The position numbers and the translations under genes were made by a program. A stretch of 50,401 nt of DNA, from sequence record DRR723986_8153; one strand, given 5' to 3'. Under the pieces are notes generated by a model that saw only the letters and a program-made list of their open reading frames with translations, ran no database searches and had not been told where the DNA came from. Position 1 is the stretch's first letter, and each line of letters starts with the position of its first letter. Below are positions 6,964-16,204 of the stretch, in pieces.

Positions 6964-7518
6964 CTAAAAAGTATATCCTACAGACAATTTAAGCACATTA
7001 TTTTTGACGTCTTGATTGTAATAATTTGTGCTCTGTATCCCTAAATCATAACTGGCCTGAGCATTAAATCCTAAGGGCAAATCTACTCCAACACCTACCA
7101 CACCGGCTATTTCATATCCTTTGATAGCCTCTGTGCTAGTATCAGTACTGCCATCCGCGTACTCTAATTTTCTAGAGACCAAAACTGAGCCCTGCGGTCC
7201 AGCAAAAACATTTAAAAATGGAAGAAAATTTACCCTAAGTAGTACAGGAACATCTATGTAATTCAAACGATCTTGATCAACTGCAGGAGTGCCAGTATCG
7301 CCGGTCCTAATGTGACCCTTTTGGGAATATTGAATACCCGGCTCAACAGCTATAAATCCGGCACCAATCTTATAGTAACCTCCAACATGAAACCCTCCGA
7401 TTGCCTTAGAATCAAAGTCTGAGAAATTAGCACTGGAATAACCTGCGCGAATACCAAATTGAGCATGAGCTGATCCAAACAACCCAAGAGCGAATACTAA
7501 AACCAAAAGTTTTTTCAT
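6964..7518 (-). CDS. Outer-membrane beta-barrel (porin/PorT-like family) protein
   Basis: Signal peptide ending AHA-Q, FGIRAG, YIDVPVLL and C-terminal LSVGYTF beta-signal. Confidence 0.85.
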   Translation of the reverse strand: MKKLLVLVFALGLFGSAHAQFGIRAGYSSANFSDFDSKAIGGFHVGGYYKIGAGFIAVEPGIQYSQKGHIRTGDTGTPAVDQDRLNYIDVPVLLRVNFLPFLNVFAGPQGSVLVSRKLEYADGSTDTSTEAIKGYEIAGVVGVGVDLPLGFNAQASYDLGIQSTNYYNQDVKNNVLKLSVGYTF

Positions 7519-7696: not shown

Positions 7697-8260
7697 ATGG
7701 AAAATTTCTCAAGTCTTTTCAGCAAATTCCCTACCATAAGTGATGAAGCAAAACGAGCCTTTGCAAGTCACTTAGAAGAATTTGAAGTAGAAAAAGGCTA
7801 CCTATTGGAAAAAGAGGGGCAAATAAGCAAATTTCTTTACTTCGTTGCTGTAGGTTCTGCGAGAAGTTACTACATCCGTGATAACCGTGACATTACGGTC
7901 TCATTTACCCTAGATGAGGAATTTGTCACCGCGATGCACTCGTTCATTACAAGAAAACCTTCCTATGAAAACATTGAAACCATGGAGAAAAGTAAGGTTT
8001 TCAAAATCTCCTATGATAACCTTCAGGCCTGCTTTCTTGAATTCCCTGAACTCGAGCGCGCTTACCGCATGATTTTGGAGCAATATTATATAGTGCTAGA
8101 GGAACAACAGATATTCACCAAGTTTAAAACTGCTAGGGAAAGGTACCTCGAATTGATGCAATACCGGCCAAAAGTAATTCACAAAGCTTCCGTGGGTCAA
8201 ATCGCTTCCTTTCTCGACATGACTATAGAAACACTCAGTAGAATTCGGGCGAAGATTTAA
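7697..8260 (+). CDS. Crp/Fnr family transcriptional regulator
   Basis: cNMP-binding-like domain; C-terminal HTH QIASFLDMTIETLSRIR. Confidence 0.9.
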   Translation: MENFSSLFSKFPTISDEAKRAFASHLEEFEVEKGYLLEKEGQISKFLYFVAVGSARSYYIRDNRDITVSFTLDEEFVTAMHSFITRKPSYENIETMEKSKVFKISYDNLQACFLEFPELERAYRMILEQYYIVLEEQQIFTKFKTARERYLELMQYRPKVIHKASVGQIASFLDMTIETLSRIRAKI

Positions 8261-8283: not shown

Positions 8284-8829
8284 TTAATCTTTACCCCCAC
8301 TTCCTTTAAACTGATCTTCTTTATAAGCAAAAAGTACATTGAAAGTAGTCAATGAGCCATATGCTCTGGTAATGTACTGTTGCAAGTGAATCCGGTCTTC
8401 ATCGTCCAATTTTGGGTGATTGTTGATATTTTGCTCCAGCACTCTCAGTTTTTCCCTCACCATTACGATTTTATGAAAAAACGCAGACATCGGGATTTCC
8501 TTGGTTTGTAGCGATTCATCGTTTGGTTCAAAAATCACATTGCCACCCATCCATTTCCCTCCTAAAGGAACAATCGGTGCGCGCTCCGAGGTCTGTATCA
8601 GCGCTTCTCGAATGGCCTTTTCTACATCCTTCATTGTCAGCATTGGGAAATCAGGAACCTTGGCTTCCTCCACAGTAAATCCCTCATAGTCCCTTGCGAG
8701 CGTCTTCACTTCCTCAGTGGTATAGAAGTAGATTTTATAATAAGTCTCATCGAGAGAAAGGATCATACCTGTCCCGAATTTGGGATGCACCAATTTGCTA
8801 CCTGGTGCCAGTTCACTTGCTTGTGCCAT
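8284..8829 (-). CDS. Conserved hypothetical protein with N-terminal Tudor/SH3-like segment
   Basis: GSKLVHPKFGTGMI N-terminus; helical C-terminal region FFHKIVMVREKLRVLEQ...YGSLTTFNVLF. Confidence 0.8.
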   Translation of the reverse strand: MAQASELAPGSKLVHPKFGTGMILSLDETYYKIYFYTTEEVKTLARDYEGFTVEEAKVPDFPMLTMKDVEKAIREALIQTSERAPIVPLGGKWMGGNVIFEPNDESLQTKEIPMSAFFHKIVMVREKLRVLEQNINNHPKLDDEDRIHLQQYITRAYGSLTTFNVLFAYKEDQFKGSGGKD

Positions 8830-8900
8830 TTTTAAAAAGATTTAGGGATCCAAAATAAGGAATTTTACTAAAAGAGAATTAGCTACAATGAAAACTACCT

Positions 8901-8930
8901 AAAAAGAAAGGGGGAACTTAGCACCCCCTT
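8901..8930 (-). terminator. Intrinsic terminator
   Basis: Minus strand AAGGGGG-TGCTAAGTT-CCCCCTT followed by TCTTTTT, just after the 8935 stop. Confidence 0.7.
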
Positions 8931-8934
8931 AAAA

Positions 8935-9423
8935 TTAATTTTTCAGATTATTTATTTTCTGAGACCAAGCCTGTGCCAGATCCCATTCGTTTATCATATA
9001 GTCACTTCGCTGCTCATCATAGAGATCTATAGTAACCGGCTTACTTTGCTCATCATAATGATCTAGCTTTAAGCTGACTTTTTGAATGATCTGCCTCTTC
9101 TCCTTTCCTACCTTCATTTCACGAAAGTTTCTGATAGGACGACAAAGTCGAACCTGACTCAAGTCTATTTTCTGAACTTGGTTCCCTTTGTCCAAGGAAT
9201 TCAGAAATAGCAGTTGGCCATTTTTTTGGTCCAAGCCAATGCAATAAGCCTCCCGCCAGGTATCAAAATCCCCTGATTTCAGATGACTTACTTGTGTTTC
9301 AGACTTGAGTTGTTCCATAAGCAGATTGCTTTTATTCCTTTGTTTTAAACTTGTTAGAATTAATGGCAGGCTTACCATTACTGTCAAAGCCACCGATAAG
9401 GTAATTAATGTTAGTTCACTCAT
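8935..9423 (-). CDS. Hypothetical single-pass membrane protein
   Basis: ATG 9423 with A-rich upstream context; N-terminal TM helix followed by a basic stretch and a soluble domain. Confidence 0.75.
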   Translation of the reverse strand: MSELTLITLSVALTVMVSLPLILTSLKQRNKSNLLMEQLKSETQVSHLKSGDFDTWREAYCIGLDQKNGQLLFLNSLDKGNQVQKIDLSQVRLCRPIRNFREMKVGKEKRQIIQKVSLKLDHYDEQSKPVTIDLYDEQRSDYMINEWDLAQAWSQKINNLKN

Positions 9424-9513
9424 TATTTTTGGATGGATAAATGGAATATTTGTCCTACCTGACTTAGAGAAGCCAGAAGGATTTAGCAAAGTCAAATTGA
9501 ATTGCTATCCGTT

Positions 9514-9891
9514 TTACCAGAAATAATGGAAGGGAAAAATTATTATTGGTGCAGTAAGCGAGCCTAAAAATGGCGAGCTCGAATAGATTAGATCCAATAA
9601 GGAATTAGTATCCTGAACAAATTTTGGGTCTAAAATTGACGAAAAAAGAACTGGCCAATGTCCCGTTCCTGAACCCAAATTCTCATTGGAGCTTTGCCTA
9701 CTGATCCTATTCCAATCAGGATTAACACAAGGCTGAAAATCAGAGAAATTTGCATCTCCTTTCGTAATGCTATAATTACCTCTATCCCCAAATTCACTTG
9801 CGTACACCTGCGCTCCCAATCCTGTAGAGGGCAAAACCACCCACAGCAGGAAATAGAAAACGAGGTAAACAAGTGAAATTATTTTTTTCAT
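9514..9891 (-). CDS. Hypothetical signal/TM-bearing protein ending IIFPFHYFW (candidate regulatory leader/arrest peptide)
   Basis: MKK plus hydrophobic N-terminus, polar middle, aromatic C-terminal motif at the stop; a promoter element lies 40 nt upstream. Confidence 0.7.
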   Translation of the reverse strand: MKKIISLVYLVFYFLLWVVLPSTGLGAQVYASEFGDRGNYSITKGDANFSDFQPCVNPDWNRISRQSSNENLGSGTGHWPVLFSSILDPKFVQDTNSLLDLIYSSSPFLGSLTAPIIIFPFHYFW

Positions 9892-9931
9892 TTTTTACGA
9901 AAAGAAGGCTCTTTATGGCACCAAAGCCGCA

Positions 9932-9939
9932 CAAAAGTA
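9932..9939 (-). promoter_or_regulatory. -7 promoter element for the 9891 ORF
   Basis: Minus strand TACTTTTG, a perfect TAnnTTTG. Confidence 0.6.
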
Positions 9940-9981
9940 AGTGAATCTTCGTTAGTTTTGATCTATTCCCAATTCTCGCTT

Positions 9982-11445
9982 ATGTCTGTAACGGCCGAAA
10001 ATATTCTTTTAATCAGTTCTCTTTTACTTTTAGCAGGTGTTTTGGCGAGCAAAACTGCTGGTAAGACCGGCATTCCTATGCTTCTGATTTTCTTAGGAGT
10101 TGGGATGCTGGCTGGTTCAGACGGGATTGGCGGGATTAGATTTGACAATCCTGCCATAGCACAGTTCCTAGGAATCATTGCACTCACCTATATTCTTTAC
10201 TCAGGAGGTATTGACACCAAGTGGCCAAGCATAAAGCCAGTACTCAAACCTGGAATCACACTTTCTACCTTAGGCGTTTTGCTAACGAGTTTTTCTCTGG
10301 GCGGGTTCGTTTATATGATTTCGGAGCTAAGCTTTCTTGAAAGCCTATTACTCGGATCTATCGTTTCCTCTACAGATGCCGCTGCTGTTTTCTCTGTTTT
10401 ACGGGCAAAAAGCATAGGATTAAAAGGGCATTTGAGACCGCTACTCGAATTGGAAAGCGGAAGTAACGATCCCATGGCATATTTCCTGACTGTTTCGATC
10501 CTCGGACTGATCACTTTAGAAACGGGTTCGATCTGGGAAATTATCCCTCTGTTTTTTATTCAGATGATTGTTGGCGGTTTATTAGGCTGGCTGTTTGGGA
10601 GAGCTACCGTATTATTAATCAATAAAATCAAACTGGATTTTGAAGGGCTTTACCCTGTGATGCTTCTTGCTTTAGTATTGATTACCTACACGACGACGGA
10701 TCTATTGAAGGGCAACGGATTTCTCGCCGTTTATATCAGTGCTATCACTGTTGGGAATGCCAATATGGCCCACAAGAAAAGCCTCATGAAATTCTTTGAT
10801 GGGATCGCATGGTTGATGCAAGTGATCATGTTCATCACTTTAGGTCTCTTGGTTTTTCCTAAGCAACTCTTCCCTGTCTCAGGAATTGCAATTTTAGCTG
10901 CACTCTTTTTGATTTTCGTCGCACGACCGCTAGGAGTGTTCATCTCACTTTCCTTTTTCAAATACAAGCTTCGCGAAAAGACTTTTATCTCCTGGGTGGG
11001 ACTCAGAGGAGCAGTTCCTATCGTATTTGCGACACTACCCCTGATCGAAAATATAGAAATGGCTTCTACGATTTTCCATATCGTCTTCTTCATCGTATTA
11101 GCTTCAGTTGCAATTCAGGCGACTACCCTTCCTATAGCTGCAAAACTCCTGCATCTCTCTCTACCGGCTTCCTTGAAGCGAAGATCTATGTTAGACATCG
11201 AGCTTTCTGATGATTTCAAGAATGCGATTCTGGAAGTTCAGCTACCAAGGAACAGCATGATTGCTGGGAAGAAAATTTTGCAATTGGGATTCCCAAATAC
11301 TTCTTTAATCGTACTTGTGAAAAGAAACGGAAAATTTATCACGCCAAATGGCCAAACCGAGCTGGAAGAATTGGACGAGCTTATGATCATGTTGGAAAAT
11401 GACCAGGAAGAGGAGCAGATAAAGAATCTCCTTCAGATTAAATGA
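9982..11445 (+). CDS. cvrA: Potassium/proton antiporter (CPA1, NhaP2/CvrA type) with C-terminal TrkA-C domain
   Basis: STDAAAVFS, ELESGSNDPMA, GNGFLAVY and WVGLRGAVPI motifs; many TM helices; ATG 9982. Confidence 0.92.
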   Translation: MSVTAENILLISSLLLLAGVLASKTAGKTGIPMLLIFLGVGMLAGSDGIGGIRFDNPAIAQFLGIIALTYILYSGGIDTKWPSIKPVLKPGITLSTLGVLLTSFSLGGFVYMISELSFLESLLLGSIVSSTDAAAVFSVLRAKSIGLKGHLRPLLELESGSNDPMAYFLTVSILGLITLETGSIWEIIPLFFIQMIVGGLLGWLFGRATVLLINKIKLDFEGLYPVMLLALVLITYTTTDLLKGNGFLAVYISAITVGNANMAHKKSLMKFFDGIAWLMQVIMFITLGLLVFPKQLFPVSGIAILAALFLIFVARPLGVFISLSFFKYKLREKTFISWVGLRGAVPIVFATLPLIENIEMASTIFHIVFFIVLASVAIQATTLPIAAKLLHLSLPASLKRRSMLDIELSDDFKNAILEVQLPRNSMIAGKKILQLGFPNTSLIVLVKRNGKFITPNGQTELEELDELMIMLENDQEEEQIKNLLQIK

Positions 11446-12662: not shown

Positions 12663-13826
12663 TCAAGCTTCCGACAACACCATCTTCTCCTTAGCTTCAC
12701 CCTCAGATTCTTTCTTTGCCTTATTTCTCCTTCCCCACCAGATCAAAAATCCAGTCACTGGAAGTGAAGCGATAATCGCACTTAGGAAAAAAGCTAAGAT
12801 TTTACCCGGCAAACCCGCAATGGCGCCCACGTGCACATCATAGTTCATCCGCATAATTTTCTGGGCTACAGTTGCCTCTTCGAATCGGTTGTAAAAATGC
12901 TCCACAGGAAGTTCTTCCAAGGTATTCTGATCAAAATACCGGTAGTCAGACTTCCAATAAGTAGATGCGTCCGGATTTGCGTTGGCTGCAATAGCCGCTC
13001 CTTCGAAACCCGGAGGATGAACTTCTATCCAATCCGCATTTGGATATTCTGCATTCATCTTCATCCAAACCGCATCCAAAGCCGGGATTTCTCCCTGATA
13101 AGTCTGGGTGGAATCCGAAATTGGATCGTAATATTCTACAAATTTCTCCCCACCCGAAGCGACAAAATACAAAGTATCTCTGAACCATAAGAAGCCCCAG
13201 ACCAAACCTGTAATTGCAAAAACCAAGGCAAAAGTCATTACATAGAATCCTAAGACTTGATGCAGATCATAATTTTTTCTTCTCCATCGAGCAGACCACT
13301 TGACCTTCAGGCTTTGCTTCAAGTTCTTTTTCTTTGGCCACCAAAGAATCAAACCCGAAATCACCATAAATAGAAATACTAAGGTAAATGATGCCACTAC
13401 TGGCTGACCTATTTCCGGTGGAAGCCACAGGTAAAAATGTCCGTCTAATACGATTCGAAAAAAGTCAGCATACTCATCCTTTAGCTTGAGAACCTCACCG
13501 GAATAAGGATTGATGTATGCGATTTGGTAGTGGTCATTCCCTTCCCCATAGCTGAAGAATATAGCCTGAACAGATTTTTCTTTGGTAGGATAAAGAATCG
13601 CGTGTAAATGCCCTTCAGGAAAAGCCTTCTCTGCAATCGTAGTGATCTCACTCGGTGTCAAAACGGCAGTTTCCTGAGGTTCCACAAATAGAAATGGATA
13701 AGTCAATTCTTTGATTTCGGCCTGAAATGCGTAGATACAACCAGTAACTGCCACAATAAACACCACTAGCCCGGATGAAAGTCCGAGCCAGAGATGAAGT
13801 TTATTAATTGCCTTCTTTAGTTTCAT
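12663..13826 (-). CDS. PepSY-associated TM helix protein (iron-regulated; putative ferric-siderophore reductase)
   Basis: KLHLWLGL, LDGHFYLWL, YDLHQVLGFY and YDVHVG conserved His motifs; overlaps the receptor stop. Confidence 0.9.
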   Translation of the reverse strand: MKLKKAINKLHLWLGLSSGLVVFIVAVTGCIYAFQAEIKELTYPFLFVEPQETAVLTPSEITTIAEKAFPEGHLHAILYPTKEKSVQAIFFSYGEGNDHYQIAYINPYSGEVLKLKDEYADFFRIVLDGHFYLWLPPEIGQPVVASFTLVFLFMVISGLILWWPKKKNLKQSLKVKWSARWRRKNYDLHQVLGFYVMTFALVFAITGLVWGFLWFRDTLYFVASGGEKFVEYYDPISDSTQTYQGEIPALDAVWMKMNAEYPNADWIEVHPPGFEGAAIAANANPDASTYWKSDYRYFDQNTLEELPVEHFYNRFEEATVAQKIMRMNYDVHVGAIAGLPGKILAFFLSAIIASLPVTGFLIWWGRRNKAKKESEGEAKEKMVLSEA

Positions 13827-16204
13827 TAAAATCTATAATTGAGACTAAGTGATACATTTCTTAGATTCTGCGGGGTCACTGTGGACCAGCCTGAATAGTA
13901 CTTTTGATCTGTCAGATTATTGACCTTCAAGGCTAAGAAATATTGTGAGCCTGTATAAGATAGTGACGCGTTAAAAACCTGATAGGATGGAAGCTCAAAT
14001 GAGCCGATCACATCTCTGTTTATAGTAAGGTATTCACTGGCAGTGTTACCACCAAAGCCAAGTCCAAAGCCTTTCAATGCGCCCGCTGAGAAATTATAGC
14101 TTGCCCAAAAATTGAACAAATCTGCTGGTCCTGCTTCTTCAGGACGTAGTCCCAAGTACCCACTTTCAGCATAATCCTTGGTCACCTCTGCGTCATTGTG
14201 GCTAAACCCTGCCACCAAACTCAATCCGTCCACTGGACTTGCAATCACACTTAGCTCAAATCCTTTGCTGACTACCTCACCACCTTGGATAGAATTGTTC
14301 ACGTTGGTAGGATCAGTCATGACACGATTGCTCACTGTGATATTGTAGTAGCTGGCAGTTGCAGAGATTTTGTCGTTTAGCAAGTTGGTCTTCACACCAA
14401 ACTCATATTGGTTGGCTTTCTCAGCATCAAAAGTTTTAAAACGTGAATTGGTACCGTCGGCATCTGTCACGGTGGTTGGTGCTATATTTTTGAAGCCATT
14501 CATATAGTTTCCAAAGATGGAAACCTTGTCTTTCACTGGCTGGTAAACCACTCCGAATTTAGGAGAAACAGCTGTTTGCGTGTTTTCGTTGTTATCAGTA
14601 CCCCAGGCTTCATTTTTGAAGTTATCCACCCGTAGACTTGCCATCACAGAAAGCTGCGAAGTCAGTTCCAATACATCCGATACATAAGCACTCAAAACTC
14701 TCGTATTGCCTGTAGTATTTCCTTCGAACGTATCTTTAAGCAATTCATCCACTCCTGCTTGGGTCAAAACACCTGTGTCATTTCCATCAGAAAGTGTCAC
14801 TACGCCATTTCCAACCCAACCTGTGCTGCTATTAATCAAATCCTGATCGTAATAATCAACACCTACAATCATTTTATTTTTCATAGCTCCCAGCAGGAAA
14901 TTACCGATGAAATTTTGCTGAATGTCAGTGGAAATCGTCTGCGCATTTCTATCCGAAATATATCGGTAGAAAGAGTCTCCATCACTTCCATCAAATAGGT
15001 AGTGATAGTATCCGTCAGATTTGGTAGAGCTTCTGGAAACTACCGTCTGAGAAGTCCAGCTATTGGAAAGTTTGTAGAAAGCCTGAGCTTGAAGTGCATA
15101 CGAAGTATTGTTGATACTCAGCTCATTTCCAGTAAATGAACGCTCATAATTACGTTCAAAAGGATCAATCGAATCAAAAGTGATTGGATTTGATCTGTTC
15201 AAAAAGATCATCGGCGTATTAACTGAAGTGGCGTTCAAAAACTCGGTGTTGATCAGGAAGGAAAGCCTTTCGCTAGCCTGAAACTTAAATGAAGGGGCAA
15301 TGAAAAATGAATTTCTGTTTCCGGCATCCTGAAAGGTATTGTTGGACTGATATGCTGTATTTACACGCATAGAAGCATTTTCATTCAAAGGAACATTCAC
15401 ATCTCCTGTGATTCTATTTAACCCATAACTTCCTGTGATAAAACCAACTTCTCCTTTAAAGAAATCAGTGGGACGCTTGGTGGTGATATTGATCAAGCCT
15501 CCATAGGAAATCACTGAGCTACCGAAAAGCGTGCCTGATGGACCTTTGATCACATCCACAGTTTCGATATTTGCAGGATCAAGTCCACCATTATTTAAGC
15601 TTGGCATACCATTGACCATAGTTGGCTGGAGTGAAAAACCTCTCATTGAATAGTATTCTGCGCCGTCACCTCCACGCCCTGTAGATTCCCAAAGTCGGGT
15701 TATTCCAGTCGCATTTTTCAGTGCATCATTCATATTCGTTACCACTTGCTCTTTCAGAAGTTTGGAAGAAACTGAGTTGTAGACTTGCGGGTTTTCCAAA
15801 TCTGTCAGAGGAAGTTTAGCTACAGTAAAGTTGCTGTCAGAATAAAAGCGATTGGTACTCATATCCGTGACAATCACTTCATTGAGATCAGTAGAACTTT
15901 CTGACAAAGTGAAATTCACAGAAAGTATTTCTCCAGCACTTAACTGGATATTTTTCTCCTGCTTTTCAATACCTACAAACGAAGCATAAACAGTATAGCT
16001 ACCCGGAGCGATGTTCTTGATTTCAAAAAAACCATTTCTGTCAGTTGCATTGCCCTTCGCAAGGCCTTTGATCCCGACATTAACAAATTCCATCGGCTGG
16101 TCATCCGATGTCTTTACAAATCCTTTAATGCTGGCAGACTGGGCAAAAACGCCAAAAACGCAAAGGTAAAATAGGGTGGATAAGAGTAGAATTTTACGAT
16201 TCAT
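13826..16204 (-). CDS. TonB-dependent siderophore receptor with N-terminal carboxypeptidase-like domain
   Basis: Signal peptide (VFA-Q), plug motif VDVIKGPSGTLFG..GGLINITTK, C-terminal SLNYRF. Confidence 0.95.
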   Translation of the reverse strand: MNRKILLLSTLFYLCVFGVFAQSASIKGFVKTSDDQPMEFVNVGIKGLAKGNATDRNGFFEIKNIAPGSYTVYASFVGIEKQEKNIQLSAGEILSVNFTLSESSTDLNEVIVTDMSTNRFYSDSNFTVAKLPLTDLENPQVYNSVSSKLLKEQVVTNMNDALKNATGITRLWESTGRGGDGAEYYSMRGFSLQPTMVNGMPSLNNGGLDPANIETVDVIKGPSGTLFGSSVISYGGLINITTKRPTDFFKGEVGFITGSYGLNRITGDVNVPLNENASMRVNTAYQSNNTFQDAGNRNSFFIAPSFKFQASERLSFLINTEFLNATSVNTPMIFLNRSNPITFDSIDPFERNYERSFTGNELSINNTSYALQAQAFYKLSNSWTSQTVVSRSSTKSDGYYHYLFDGSDGDSFYRYISDRNAQTISTDIQQNFIGNFLLGAMKNKMIVGVDYYDQDLINSSTGWVGNGVVTLSDGNDTGVLTQAGVDELLKDTFEGNTTGNTRVLSAYVSDVLELTSQLSVMASLRVDNFKNEAWGTDNNENTQTAVSPKFGVVYQPVKDKVSIFGNYMNGFKNIAPTTVTDADGTNSRFKTFDAEKANQYEFGVKTNLLNDKISATASYYNITVSNRVMTDPTNVNNSIQGGEVVSKGFELSVIASPVDGLSLVAGFSHNDAEVTKDYAESGYLGLRPEEAGPADLFNFWASYNFSAGALKGFGLGFGGNTASEYLTINRDVIGSFELPSYQVFNASLSYTGSQYFLALKVNNLTDQKYYSGWSTVTPQNLRNVSLSLNYRF

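Follow-up and report, generated by a model that had tools for sequence, protein, structure and literature searches.

The leader peptide TnaC ends in proline, senses free tryptophan and acts via Rho-dependent transcription termination. A second leader, PepNL, blocks termination at its own stop codon, the nascent peptide preventing release (PMC11890864), and in Bacteroidota, upstream ORFs (uORFs) ending in NSP-stop or NAP-stop have been seen in toeprints to stall the ribosome with the stop codon in the A site (PMC10987492). Bacterial arrest peptides have mostly come to light through searches upstream of secretion genes, and the family described here would have been missed. As its design is described, the survey in PMC10987492 was confined to ORFs upstream of Sec/YidC genes and therefore could not have found it. 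No earlier description of the family was found in the titles and abstracts searched, nor was any paper with its motif 'FPFHYFW' or a described termination arrest with this chemistry (Trp last, not Pro). The uORF cluster tables of PMC10987492, though restricted to positions upstream of Sec/YidC, could in principle include related ORFs.

Here we describe a two-gene locus in the window (the whole stretch of DNA analysed, 50,401 nt), in which a leader-like ORF, gene A, encodes a candidate arrest peptide upstream of a second gene, B. A ribosome-stalling switch of this A-B kind looks like an undescribed one, judging from the comparisons below. The features of the locus are as follows.

9932..9939, minus strand: -7 promoter box of the Bacteroidota type, TACTTTTG, separated from the gene A ATG by 40 nt
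9514..9891, minus strand: gene A, a leader-like ORF of 125 aa (ATG at 9891, TAA at 9516-9514)
9802..9891, minus strand: putative export signal or signal anchor of gene A, residues 1-30 (MKK, hydrophobic stretch), from a heuristic and an AlphaFold2 helix
9517..9543, minus strand: invariant C-terminal peptide IIFPFHYFW, with the stop directly after it, from homologue comparison
9508..9530, minus strand: 5' arm of a predicted long-range helix, comprising codons F-H-Y-F-W, the stop and the 6 nt after it (RNAalifold, RNAfold)
9453..9507, minus strand: two predicted local hairpins in the 90-nt spacer, inside the long-range helix (RNAalifold, RNAfold)
9419..9445, minus strand: 3' arm of the predicted long-range helix, the A-rich initiation region of gene B with its AUG at 9423-9421 (RNAalifold, RNAfold)
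8935..9423, minus strand: gene B, 162 aa, with a transmembrane helix at the N-terminus and a PH-like domain after it, start set from an alignment of 52-53 relatives
8911..8928, minus strand: terminator-like hairpin with T-tract that would close the two-gene unit (consensus scan only)

The initial annotation had described a 125-aa ORF ending in IIFPFHYFW-stop, with its own promoter element, an MKK plus hydrophobic N-terminus and a domain-less linker, and these descriptions held. Translation gave the ORF and its ending on the minus strand, which that annotation had left unstated; the protein opens with MKK and a hydrophobic stretch and closes with APIIIFPFHYFW before the stop. The promoter element is read at 9939-9932 on the minus strand, fits the consensus TAnnTTTG described in PMC6847099, and is kept at a similar upstream distance in two Algoriphagus relatives (L001, L080). 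Across lineages, the mRNA of gene A appears to be leaderless in most. Gene A had no Pfam or NCBIfam match above noise, and AlphaFold2 (24-sequence alignment, mean pLDDT 50) modelled residues 2-22 as the sole helix, the body after it being predicted as disordered. In 80 family members, a heuristic gave an n-region net charge of +1 to +4 (72 members), a hydrophobic stretch with a median length of 17.5 aa, and a zero or negative net charge over the 15 aa that follow (62 members). The ORFs had a median length of 123 codons (range 114-129), with a median of 98 residues (range 87-109) between the end of the hydrophobic stretch and the C-terminus.

Gene A has 23 full-length homologues with 48-98% identity, and those with names were all Algoriphagus; the nearest genome (G001) served as whole-genome stand-in for the window. 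Of 1.84 billion representatives searched with the whole-length window protein, only four reached E <= 0.001. In a Bacteroidota cluster of the Atlas whose proteins have 123 aa (score 0.93), 34% of members carry the Pfam family DUF8440 (PF28586), a possible catalogue entry for gene A, for which no mention was found in the literature. Other assignments were considered for the protein. An outer-membrane beta-signal was rejected, since a barrel would need a longer mature part and the motif is invariant and includes Pro. A lipoprotein signal was rejected as well, the window protein having no lipobox. A RiPP precursor reading was set aside because no modifying enzyme is conserved nearby.

All 24 sequences of the Algoriphagus clade kept the C-terminal peptide IIFPFHYFW unchanged. 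A scan of 596 Gb found FPFHYFW-stop in the genomes of at least 119 species, all of them Bacteroidota wherever a taxon is given in the title, at the end of otherwise dissimilar ORFs of ~123 codons; the statement in the initial annotation that many otherwise dissimilar Bacteroidota proteins share such an ending was accurate. The degenerate 24-nt pattern of FPFHYFW plus stop carries ~39 bits (uniform base composition), so chance alone would give ~2 matches in 596 Gb, both strands counted. Searched without the stop, the pattern had eight matches in 401 phylum genomes, all eight being ORF ends upstream of gene B, and the backwards control had none; the exact motif was found in 8/401 phylum genomes. 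Among the matches listed, codon usage in the motif was TTT 68 and TTC 56 for Phe, CCC 46, CCT 45, CCG 19 and CCA 14 for Pro, CAT 95 and CAC 29 for His, and TAT 103 and TAC 21 for Tyr. The synonymous codons vary freely, and therefore selection acts on the peptide. Four of the loci L001-L084 lacked an ORF of 90 codons or more and were dropped, two being contig-end cuts (L032, L036) and two having frames of 40 and 58 codons (L045, L073), while L085-L123 were available with 300-nt flanks only and served only for tails and codon counts.

When loci were ascertained through gene B, the upstream ORF ended in a variant of approximately [FY]PFHx[FH]W-stop at all 29 loci with upstream DNA, a count that leaves out one locus without it (L133). 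The variants keep the chemistry of the motif (FPFNYFW, YPFHFFW, FPFHYHW, FPFHCFW and others), with PFH kept in 23/29 and the final W in 24/29. Conservation reaches ~25 residues back from the stop (Y at -25, S at -21, N at -19, R at -13, K at -12 and D at -10, with I or L at -9 and -8). The length of this tail is close to that of the ribosomal tunnel. In homologue and tail alignments, conservation in gene A centred on two parts, the hydrophobic signal at the N-terminus and these last ~25 residues, in line with the pattern that the initial annotation had anticipated for an arrest peptide; conservation along a whole-length folded domain, which it had named as the opposing outcome, is not what was found, the body not being predicted to fold (AlphaFold2). 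A mid-protein block of roughly '...P.P.FKN...', recognised by eye, is common to many lineages besides the termini, and this block and the -25 to -8 part of the tail could serve a mature protein.

The open reading frame of gene B (8935..9495) opens at TTG; alignment of relatives moves the start to the ATG at 9423, giving an N-terminus of MSELTLITL... and placing the co-oriented membrane-protein gene exactly 90 nt after the gene A stop, the distance originally proposed. AlphaFold2 modelled the protein with a mean pLDDT of 93.7, with strands between residues 53 and 136 and a helix at 146-161. In structural comparison (VIA-align) the best match had a Z of 9.9 and an rmsd of 3.6 over 95 residues, the best 50 matches were all of PH/PTB/FERM-F3/GLUE type, and the bacterial PH domain 3hsa was among the matches (Z 6.9); Foldseek matches were weak (E >= 0.02). 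The model has the seven-stranded beta-sandwich and C-terminal helix of the PH-like fold, which we confidently predict for gene B in membrane-anchored form. The same helix-capped sandwich is found in bPH proteins, and membrane-tethered members have an N-terminal membrane helix resembling that of gene B. Unlike the bPH families, however, gene B lacks a match to a Pfam bPH model: nine B proteins searched against Pfam, bPH families included, gave nothing above noise. No NCBIfam family was found, a profile of B had no significant match among PDB sequences (best E 0.082), and the nearest named Atlas cluster, bPH_11, scored 0.80, below the level that counts as more than a lead.

Among the matches listed, 79 loci had an ORF downstream of A, and in 69 of them it was the same gene B of ~160 aa; starting from gene B, the A-like ORF lay upstream at 29/29 loci with upstream DNA, so that a consistent, close, co-oriented downstream gene, as the initial annotation had foreseen, is present in both sets. 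The A-B spacer had a median of 108 nt (range 49-213); none of 69 spacers contained a TAnnTTTG box, and in the window the consensus scan placed a terminator-like site after B and none in the spacer. The two genes are predicted to be co-transcribed as an operon. Gene B was found in 35/301 class genomes searched and the exact motif in 8/401 phylum genomes, and the A-B cassette is judged to be accessory. A predicted complex of A residues 76-125 with B residues 40-162 scored 0.01, which weighs neither way.

Neighbours other than gene B were not conserved across loci. In eight loci the same tail precedes unrelated genes, namely Na+/H+ exchanger genes directly downstream (L038, L077, L004), a YitT-family protein gene (L024), an OmpL-like porin gene (L063) and mini-ORFs of 35-48 aa (L016, L041, L082). 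Such variety is easier to reconcile with a portable leader than with proteins A and B as an obligate pair. Cation/proton antiporter genes (PF00999) also lie upstream of A on the same strand (L081, L084) or divergent from it (the window, L001, L080). In three of the alternative-downstream loci the duplex was no better than 6-12% of shuffles.

The RNA around A's stop, from ~20 nt before to ~12 nt after it, is predicted to complement the start of gene B and the A-rich region upstream of it. RNAfold gave the window region a minimum free energy of -27.4 kcal/mol (z -2.75), and 0/200 shuffles were as stable. In the RNAalifold consensus, built from four Algoriphagus sequences, the His codon CAU (9528-9526) pairs with the AUG of gene B and the spacer hairpins occupy columns 39-62 and 65-93; hairpins are present in most other A-B spacers too. 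Rfam had nothing for 8800-10100 beyond a match at chance level (E = 1). Over 68 loci (spacers below 60 nt left out), the mean duplex energy was -7.3 kcal/mol for cognate versus -4.9 kcal/mol for non-cognate pairs, and the cognate value was reached in 0/10,000 permutations. Over 65 loci (spacers outside 70-140 nt left out), the best partner of gene B's start lay at -24 to +11 from the stop in 54 and elsewhere in 11. The post-stop bins held it in 26/65 cognate versus 4/65 non-cognate comparisons, while over the motif non-cognate controls peak too (24/65 in the -18 bin), part of the 5' arm being the motif's own coding sequence, which pairs generically with A-rich AUGGA starts. The independent B-ascertained set gave 20/27 cognate versus 12/27 non-cognate, with the partner elsewhere in 7/27. 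Lineage-specific complementarity was seen in L052, L055, L059, L037, L158, L148, L161 and L144. Pairing around a stop codon with a downstream start is an architecture that a stalled ribosome would exploit.

Based on these findings, we propose that A is a candidate termination-stage arrest peptide and that ribosome occupancy at its end would unmask the start of gene B, a reading for which we see the chances as evenly balanced. The nascent C-terminal peptide (consensus RKxD-II-FPFHYFW) would hold the ribosome at A's stop; lying in the upper exit tunnel and the peptidyl-transferase centre, the invariant residues would slow peptide release and so set a time window for initiation on B. Both complementary segments would fall inside the footprint of a ribosome with A's stop codon in the A site, so that B's start would be free while the ribosome is there and masked again once it has gone and the helix re-forms. 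Bacteroidia use no Shine-Dalgarno pairing, and their initiation is adjusted by RNA structure around the start, so masking would be an effective off-state. Initiation in Flavobacterium johnsoniae is reported to be tuned by mRNA structure (PMC6847099). More speculatively, export through the N-terminal signal could pull on the chain and end the arrest, in which case a defect in export, or in the membrane energy behind it, would raise B; translocation or membrane status as the signal for A is something we infer. Several findings count against the reading: a last residue of Trp and not Pro, a helix that could couple translation by itself, loci with the best partner elsewhere, blocks shared beyond the termini and an accessory cassette. 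The arrest-leader interpretation of the initial annotation is supported in part: the computational evidence it had named, conserved termini and a consistent downstream gene, is present, the arrest itself is a prediction, and the downstream gene is not a known secretion component. A wider version we put forward only tentatively, as possible but short of probable: a phylum-wide family with the motif [FY]PFHx[FH]W-stop, usually on leaderless mRNA, whose dwell time at termination, set by export or by membrane energy or ion state, would unmask the start of the PH-like protein or, in some lineages, of an antiporter.

Many of the same observations could be accommodated if A were an ordinary exported or membrane-anchored small protein whose aromatic C-terminus acts in the envelope, for example as a free C-terminal tag for a PDZ-type protease or partner or as a membrane-interface anchor, the helix merely coupling translation of B. 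The export-type N-terminus of A points this way, as do its conserved length, the conservation of ~25 residues at the C-terminus, the additional blocks common to many lineages, and an A-B co-occurrence as tight as that of complex partners. A motif anchored at the extreme C-terminus is characteristic of free-carboxylate tags such as PDZ ligands, and by analogy that of A may be one. The helix alone could moreover give ordinary translational coupling, so arrest is not required for it. Nevertheless, we consider an envelope role on balance unlikely. The body of A, disordered by prediction, has diverged past detection, yet seven residues are identical across orders, which would be unusual for an interface; the positive-inside rule puts the tail of A in the periplasm and the PH-like domain of B in the cytoplasm, on opposite sides of the membrane, so the tail could not contact that domain after export; the same tail stands before unrelated genes in eight loci; and both arms of the helix fall exactly within the footprint of a stop-codon ribosome.

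The motif might instead be kept mainly as RNA, its codons UUC CAU UAU UUC UGG serving as an anti-start for B and the peptide being a by-product. In the window clade the His-Tyr-Phe codons do pair with AAAUAAUGA of B's start, and the mean duplex-energy profile over all loci has a minimum over the motif codons. Against this, every synonymous third position varies, Pro occurs in all four codons, 29/124 His codons are CAC and unable to pair fully with AUG, the amino-acid variants conserve chemistry rather than pairing, and most lineages pair through a second, lineage-specific arm after the stop, which makes such an origin very improbable; some RNA-level constraint on the motif may exist, since its codons pair generically with AUGGA starts. 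An arrest peptide whose release responds, through the His/aromatic tail, to a cytoplasmic condition (such as pH, K+ or a tunnel ligand) instead of export, with ion homeostasis genes under its control, would account for the PF00999 antiporter genes that adjoin A in several distant lineages, and His at -4 is kept in 27/29 B-ascertained variants. It would leave unexplained the N-terminal export signal and the fixed distance of ~98 residues from it to the tail, however, and antiporter adjacency is a minority pattern (7/80 loci plus the window, some of them close relatives). Dependence on a ligand or pH, moreover, cannot be read from sequence, and we regard ion sensing as improbable.

If true, the aromatic/His, Trp-at-stop chemistry of gene A could uncover a mechanism, so far undescribed, by which nascent chains prevent peptide release, and the locus would exemplify occupancy control without Shine-Dalgarno pairing, by masking of the start codon itself. 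It would be a Shine-Dalgarno-independent form of the monitoring-substrate mechanism and the first such circuit with a target other than a Sec/YidC component; that gene B is not one also counts against the reading, as the 'monitoring substrate' logic lacks its usual target here. For a widespread PH-like membrane protein that has no name it would supply a first functional context, as it would for several hundred 'hypothetical proteins' in the Bacteroidota Atlas clusters nearest to A and B.

Among described systems, TnaC resembles the proposed action of A in arresting at termination with a nascent tunnel peptide that blocks release. Both it and PepNL are short cytoplasmic leaders without export signals, whereas A has 125 aa, an export signal and a Trp-ended motif with no similarity to either, which sets it apart from the TnaC type (short cytoplasmic leader, Pro-stop). 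The NSP/NAP-stop peptides of PMC10987492 share with A a Bacteroidota origin, an N-terminal localisation signal, a stop-abutting motif and a position upstream of a co-oriented gene. Their arrest has been measured, while that of A is predicted from sequence; their motif ends in Pro (N-S-P, N-A-P) and they precede secA or secDF, whereas that of A is aromatic/His and Trp-ended and precedes the PH-like membrane protein or sometimes an antiporter, so that A falls outside a class defined by a Pro end and a secA/secDF neighbour. SecM, VemP, MifM and the RAPP-like peptides, as presented in PMC10987492, stall in elongation a few codons before the stop and regulate Sec/YidC machinery by Shine-Dalgarno masking. 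In contrast, the motif of A ends at the stop, its regulated gene is no Sec/YidC component and the A-B pairing would mask a start codon without a Shine-Dalgarno sequence. What these peptides combine, namely a signal or anchor, a variable linker and a conserved C-terminal element, is also the layout of A, and their RNA-held downstream initiation region, opened by a stalled ribosome, has its counterpart in the predicted A-B pairing; in sequence and predicted RNA, A thus shares with them the signal, the conserved tail with variable body, the upstream position and the sequestered start.

The initial annotation had described a signal-bearing ORF with its own promoter element, no recognisable domain, an aromatic C-terminus at its stop codon and a co-oriented gene 90 nt on, all of which we confirmed, but on the minus strand. 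The features of this unit, in which gene A is the putative leader and gene B the downstream membrane-protein gene, are the following:

9939-9932, minus strand: Bacteroidota-type -7 box TACTTTTG, 40 nt from the gene A ATG
9891 (ATG) to 9516-9514 (TAA), minus strand: gene A, 125 aa, with MKK, a hydrophobic stretch and a polar body, ending APIIIFPFHYFW-stop
9423 (ATG), minus strand: gene B start, set by alignment with 52 relatives; the ORF listing began at TTG 9495
8928-8911, minus strand: terminator-like hairpin past gene B (terminator scan)

The same scan found no terminator-like site between A and B in the window, and neither protein matched Pfam or NCBIfam. A word-indexed search returned 24 full-length proteins for A with 48-98% identity, those with a named source all being from Algoriphagus, and their alignment is invariant mainly at TGHW...F and the last nine residues, IIFPFHYFW, with the N-terminal hydrophobic stretch likewise well conserved. 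Whole-length similarity fades quickly, since phmmer, run exhaustively against 1.84 billion representatives, gave only 4 proteins at E <= 0.001. An Algoriphagus A profile recovered, from three other genomes belonging to two further genera of the same family, ORFs of 124-130 aa in which the match was limited to the C-termini, all ending (I/L)IFPFHYFW-stop.

A degenerate DNA pattern for FPFHYFW plus stop, run against 185,579 species, each represented by a single genome, matched at least 119 stretches, compared with about 2 expected by chance (39-bit pattern, our own arithmetic). Among the matches listed, 79 of 80 titles name a Bacteroidota taxon, including Flavobacteriales, Cytophagales, Chitinophagales, Sphingobacteriales, Bacteroidales and others, the remaining one being an untitled metagenome chromosome; the motif that the initial annotation ascribed to many otherwise dissimilar Bacteroidota proteins is thus real. 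Among the 84 flanked loci (L001-L084), the motif closes an ORF of 90 codons or more in 80; of the four dropped, two were cut by contig ends and two (L045, L073) have frames of only 40 and 58 codons, maybe decayed A-B gene pairs (cassettes) or assembly frameshifts. Every synonymous position of the motif varies (TTT 68, TTC 56; CCC 46, CCT 45, CCG 19, CCA 14; CAT 95, CAC 29; TAT 103, TAC 21), and therefore the peptide is conserved, not the DNA. Without its stop, the pattern matched in 8 of 401 genomes of the phylum (reversed control, 0) and all eight matches were ORF ends, so that the motif is patchy and always terminal.

An exact TAnnTTTG box followed by an in-frame start codon (GTG 30, ATG 21, TTG 4) was found in 55 of 79 complete loci, with a spacing of exactly 4 nt in 43 and 5 nt in eight (e.g. 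L013, L006, L012). In Flavobacterium johnsoniae, transcription starts 4 or 5 nt past the -7 element, and leaders exceed 10 nt in 87% of predicted transcripts (PMC6847099). Based on the matching distance, most A mRNAs are predicted to be leaderless and often GTG-started, an exception being the Algoriphagus clade of the window, whose box lies ~40 nt from the ATG, leaving a leader of roughly 35 nt. From box-defined starts A has a median of 123 codons (114-129). Its N-terminus carries a net charge of +1 to +4 in 72 of 80 ORFs, the hydrophobic stretch has a median of 17.5 residues, and a neutral or acidic 15-residue segment follows it in 62 of 80, which predicts an N-in, C-out topology. The distance from this stretch to the C-terminus is a median of 98 residues (87-109). 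The tail is conserved over ~25 residues, Y(-25)...S.N[IFL]L[IV].[LFY]RK.D[IL][IL]FPFHYFW in 114 distinct tails, with positions -7 to -1 set by the search pattern itself; conservation is focused at the termini, as had been anticipated. AlphaFold2 (24 sequences) modelled only a helix at 2-22, with a mean pLDDT of 50 and nearly all of 27-125 below 50, which is weak evidence for a disordered body because the alignment is shallow.

One homologous protein, B, lies downstream in 69 of the 79 loci that have a same-strand downstream ORF, in line with the earlier expectation of a close co-oriented gene, and no other conserved neighbour of A was seen in these loci. The A stop lies a median of 108 nt from the B start (49-213), and TAnnTTTG occurs in none of the 69 spacers. 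B has a short acidic N-terminus, followed by a single membrane helix, a cluster of Lys and Arg and then a domain of ~115 residues, which the positive-inside rule puts in the cytoplasm. Its AlphaFold2 model (mean pLDDT 93.7) gave PH/PTB/FERM-F3/GLUE-type folds for all of the best 50 listed VIA-align matches (best Z 9.9, rmsd 3.6 over 95 residues); Foldseek matches were weak (E >= 0.02), the best being mostly of the same fold. L043 and L057 agree in the A tail, in how the spacer begins and in the downstream frame, with A intact and only a 71-codon frame at the B position; these are perhaps decayed cassettes or assembly frameshifts.

Searching with B made ascertainment independent of the motif. 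Of 301 genomes searched in the class, 35 carry B, and upstream DNA was present at 29 of the 30 B loci among the matches listed, with B preceded at all 29 by a frame of 90 codons or more that ends 62-127 nt before it. The tails were FPFHYFW, FPFNYFW, FPFDYFW, FPFHYHW, FPFHCFW, YPFHYHW, YPFHFFW, FPFHSFL, FPFHYFR, YPFHHFW, FPFHIFW, SPFHFFP, YAFHFFW and FPKHNFW, together with a second type, F[IL][RH]FF[HF][ST]W; 23 of the 29 retain PFH and 24 the final W. The genome nearest the window (G001) has three cassettes, two of the second type ending ...TFIHFFYTW-stop. These are L162 (G001:C1:174300-176200) and L163 (G001:C4:400900-402800), and L153 and L155 are alike; A' is ~114 aa, ending ...LFDVK[DE]TFIHFFYTW-stop, B' at least 164 aa and the spacer only ~65 nt.

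In most lineages the bases just past the A stop, typically UAA-UCCAUUUUU, complement the B start region (AAAAAUGGA), and this segment changes along with the B start (L052, L055, L059, L037, L072; and, among loci found through B, L158, L148, L161, L144). The comparison of each A-stop region with its own (cognate) and other loci's (non-cognate) B starts was as follows, the 65-locus scan running from 45 nt before the A stop to the spacer end:

Pairing of A-stop regions with B starts
Mean duplex energy, 68 loci: cognate -7.3, non-cognate -4.9 kcal/mol
Best partner of B start at -24..+11 from stop, 65 loci: cognate 54, non-cognate 40
Best partner in post-stop bins (0..+11), 65 loci: cognate 26, non-cognate 4
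Best partner at -24..+11, 27 B-ascertained loci: cognate 20, non-cognate 12

None of 10,000 permutations attained the cognate mean energy. Since UUCCAUUAUUU complements A-rich AUGGA starts, a second, generic minimum lies over the motif codons; non-cognate controls also peak there, with 24 of 65 in the -18 bin. The window clade uses this coding arm: in the RNAalifold model the His codon CAU (9528-9526) pairs with the B AUG (9423-9421), in a helix enclosing two local hairpins; the window sequence is predicted in the same fold (-27.4 kcal/mol, z -2.75). By the established geometry of the ribosome footprint, a ribosome with the stop codon in its A site covers the stretch of both helix arms.

At some loci an A-like ORF with this tail stands instead before a Na+/H+ exchanger gene (118 nt away in L038 and L077, 293 nt in L004), a YitT-family gene (L024) or, in L063, an OmpL-like porin gene with a duplex of -18.4 kcal/mol versus -7.5 for shuffles. 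In a Chitinophagales-type clade (L016, L041, L082) a mini-ORF of 35-48 aa, not B, lies 78-82 nt past the A-like stop. Since the same tail precedes genes other than B, these loci support A as a portable regulatory leader, although the duplexes at L004, L024 and L077 were no better than 6-12% of shuffles. The mini-ORFs (MPD[YH]I[IV]TLL...NRD...) each have a single membrane helix followed by a basic tail, resembling the N-terminal part of B without the PH-like domain. Na+/H+ exchanger family genes lie directly down- or upstream of A-like ORFs in several distant lineages (L004, L038, L077, L081, L084). Neighbours in the window are:

9958-11445, plus strand: K+/H+ antiporter gene (NF003716, PF00999), divergent beside gene A
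8284-8829, minus strand: 181-aa ORF just past the A-B unit, sole hit sub-threshold (CarD_TRCF_RID, E 0.15)
12663-16204, minus strand: 792-aa ORF resembling a TonB-dependent receptor by eye, then a 387-aa membrane ORF
6964-7518, minus strand: outer-membrane beta-barrel protein (PF13505, E 2.5e-13)
7697-8260, plus strand: cNMP-binding Crp-like regulator (PF00027, E 7.3e-08)

The last two were not conserved beside the cassette in other genomes.

We propose that ribosome dwell time at the A stop would set B translation, the strand masking the B start codon sitting beneath the ribosome that terminates on A. Such a switch fits the invariant terminal peptide, the peptide-level selection, the operon lacking an internal promoter and the start-codon mask. 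Bacteroidia disregard Shine-Dalgarno sequences, and structure and upstream adenines tune their initiation (PMC6847099), so a start-codon mask would be effective. The A peptide would prolong the dwell by arrest at termination, and its export might relieve the arrest, given that it has an N-terminal signal and a fixed spacing of ~98 residues. To the extent that sequence comparison can show it, A is supported as a candidate arrest peptide; that its nascent C-terminus holds the ribosome and so frees the B start has, in our judgement, roughly even chances.

On the main competing reading, A is a small protein that is exported and works in the envelope through its free aromatic C-terminus, the helix giving plain translational coupling. 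This would account for the co-occurrence of A and B and for the additional conserved blocks, but leaves unexplained the identical residues ending an otherwise unrecognisable body predicted to be unstructured, the opposite predicted topologies of the A tail and the B domain, and the differing downstream genes. Conservation of the motif as RNA only is countered by its synonymous variation. The cassette may be functionally tied to ion or proton homeostasis, and an arrest variant sensing ions or pH is suggested by the recurring antiporter neighbours, although these are a minority.

The string FPFHYFW was not found in the literature searched, and titles and opening parts of abstracts on arrest peptides in Bacteroidetes/Bacteroidota do not describe the A family, which may already be catalogued as a DUF in newer Pfam. 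The sole systematic survey covering Bacteroidota was restricted to regions upstream of Sec/YidC genes (PMC10987492). It offers a precedent for arrest at a stop codon in the Bacteroidota NSP-stop and NAP-stop uORFs, which need their stop codon for arrest and show it by toeprinting to occupy the A site (PMC10987492). The A-B cassette shares its architecture with monitoring-substrate arrest peptides and differs from them in its new terminal motif, predicted Shine-Dalgarno-independent start-codon masking, usually leaderless mRNA (also predicted) and putative non-Sec target.
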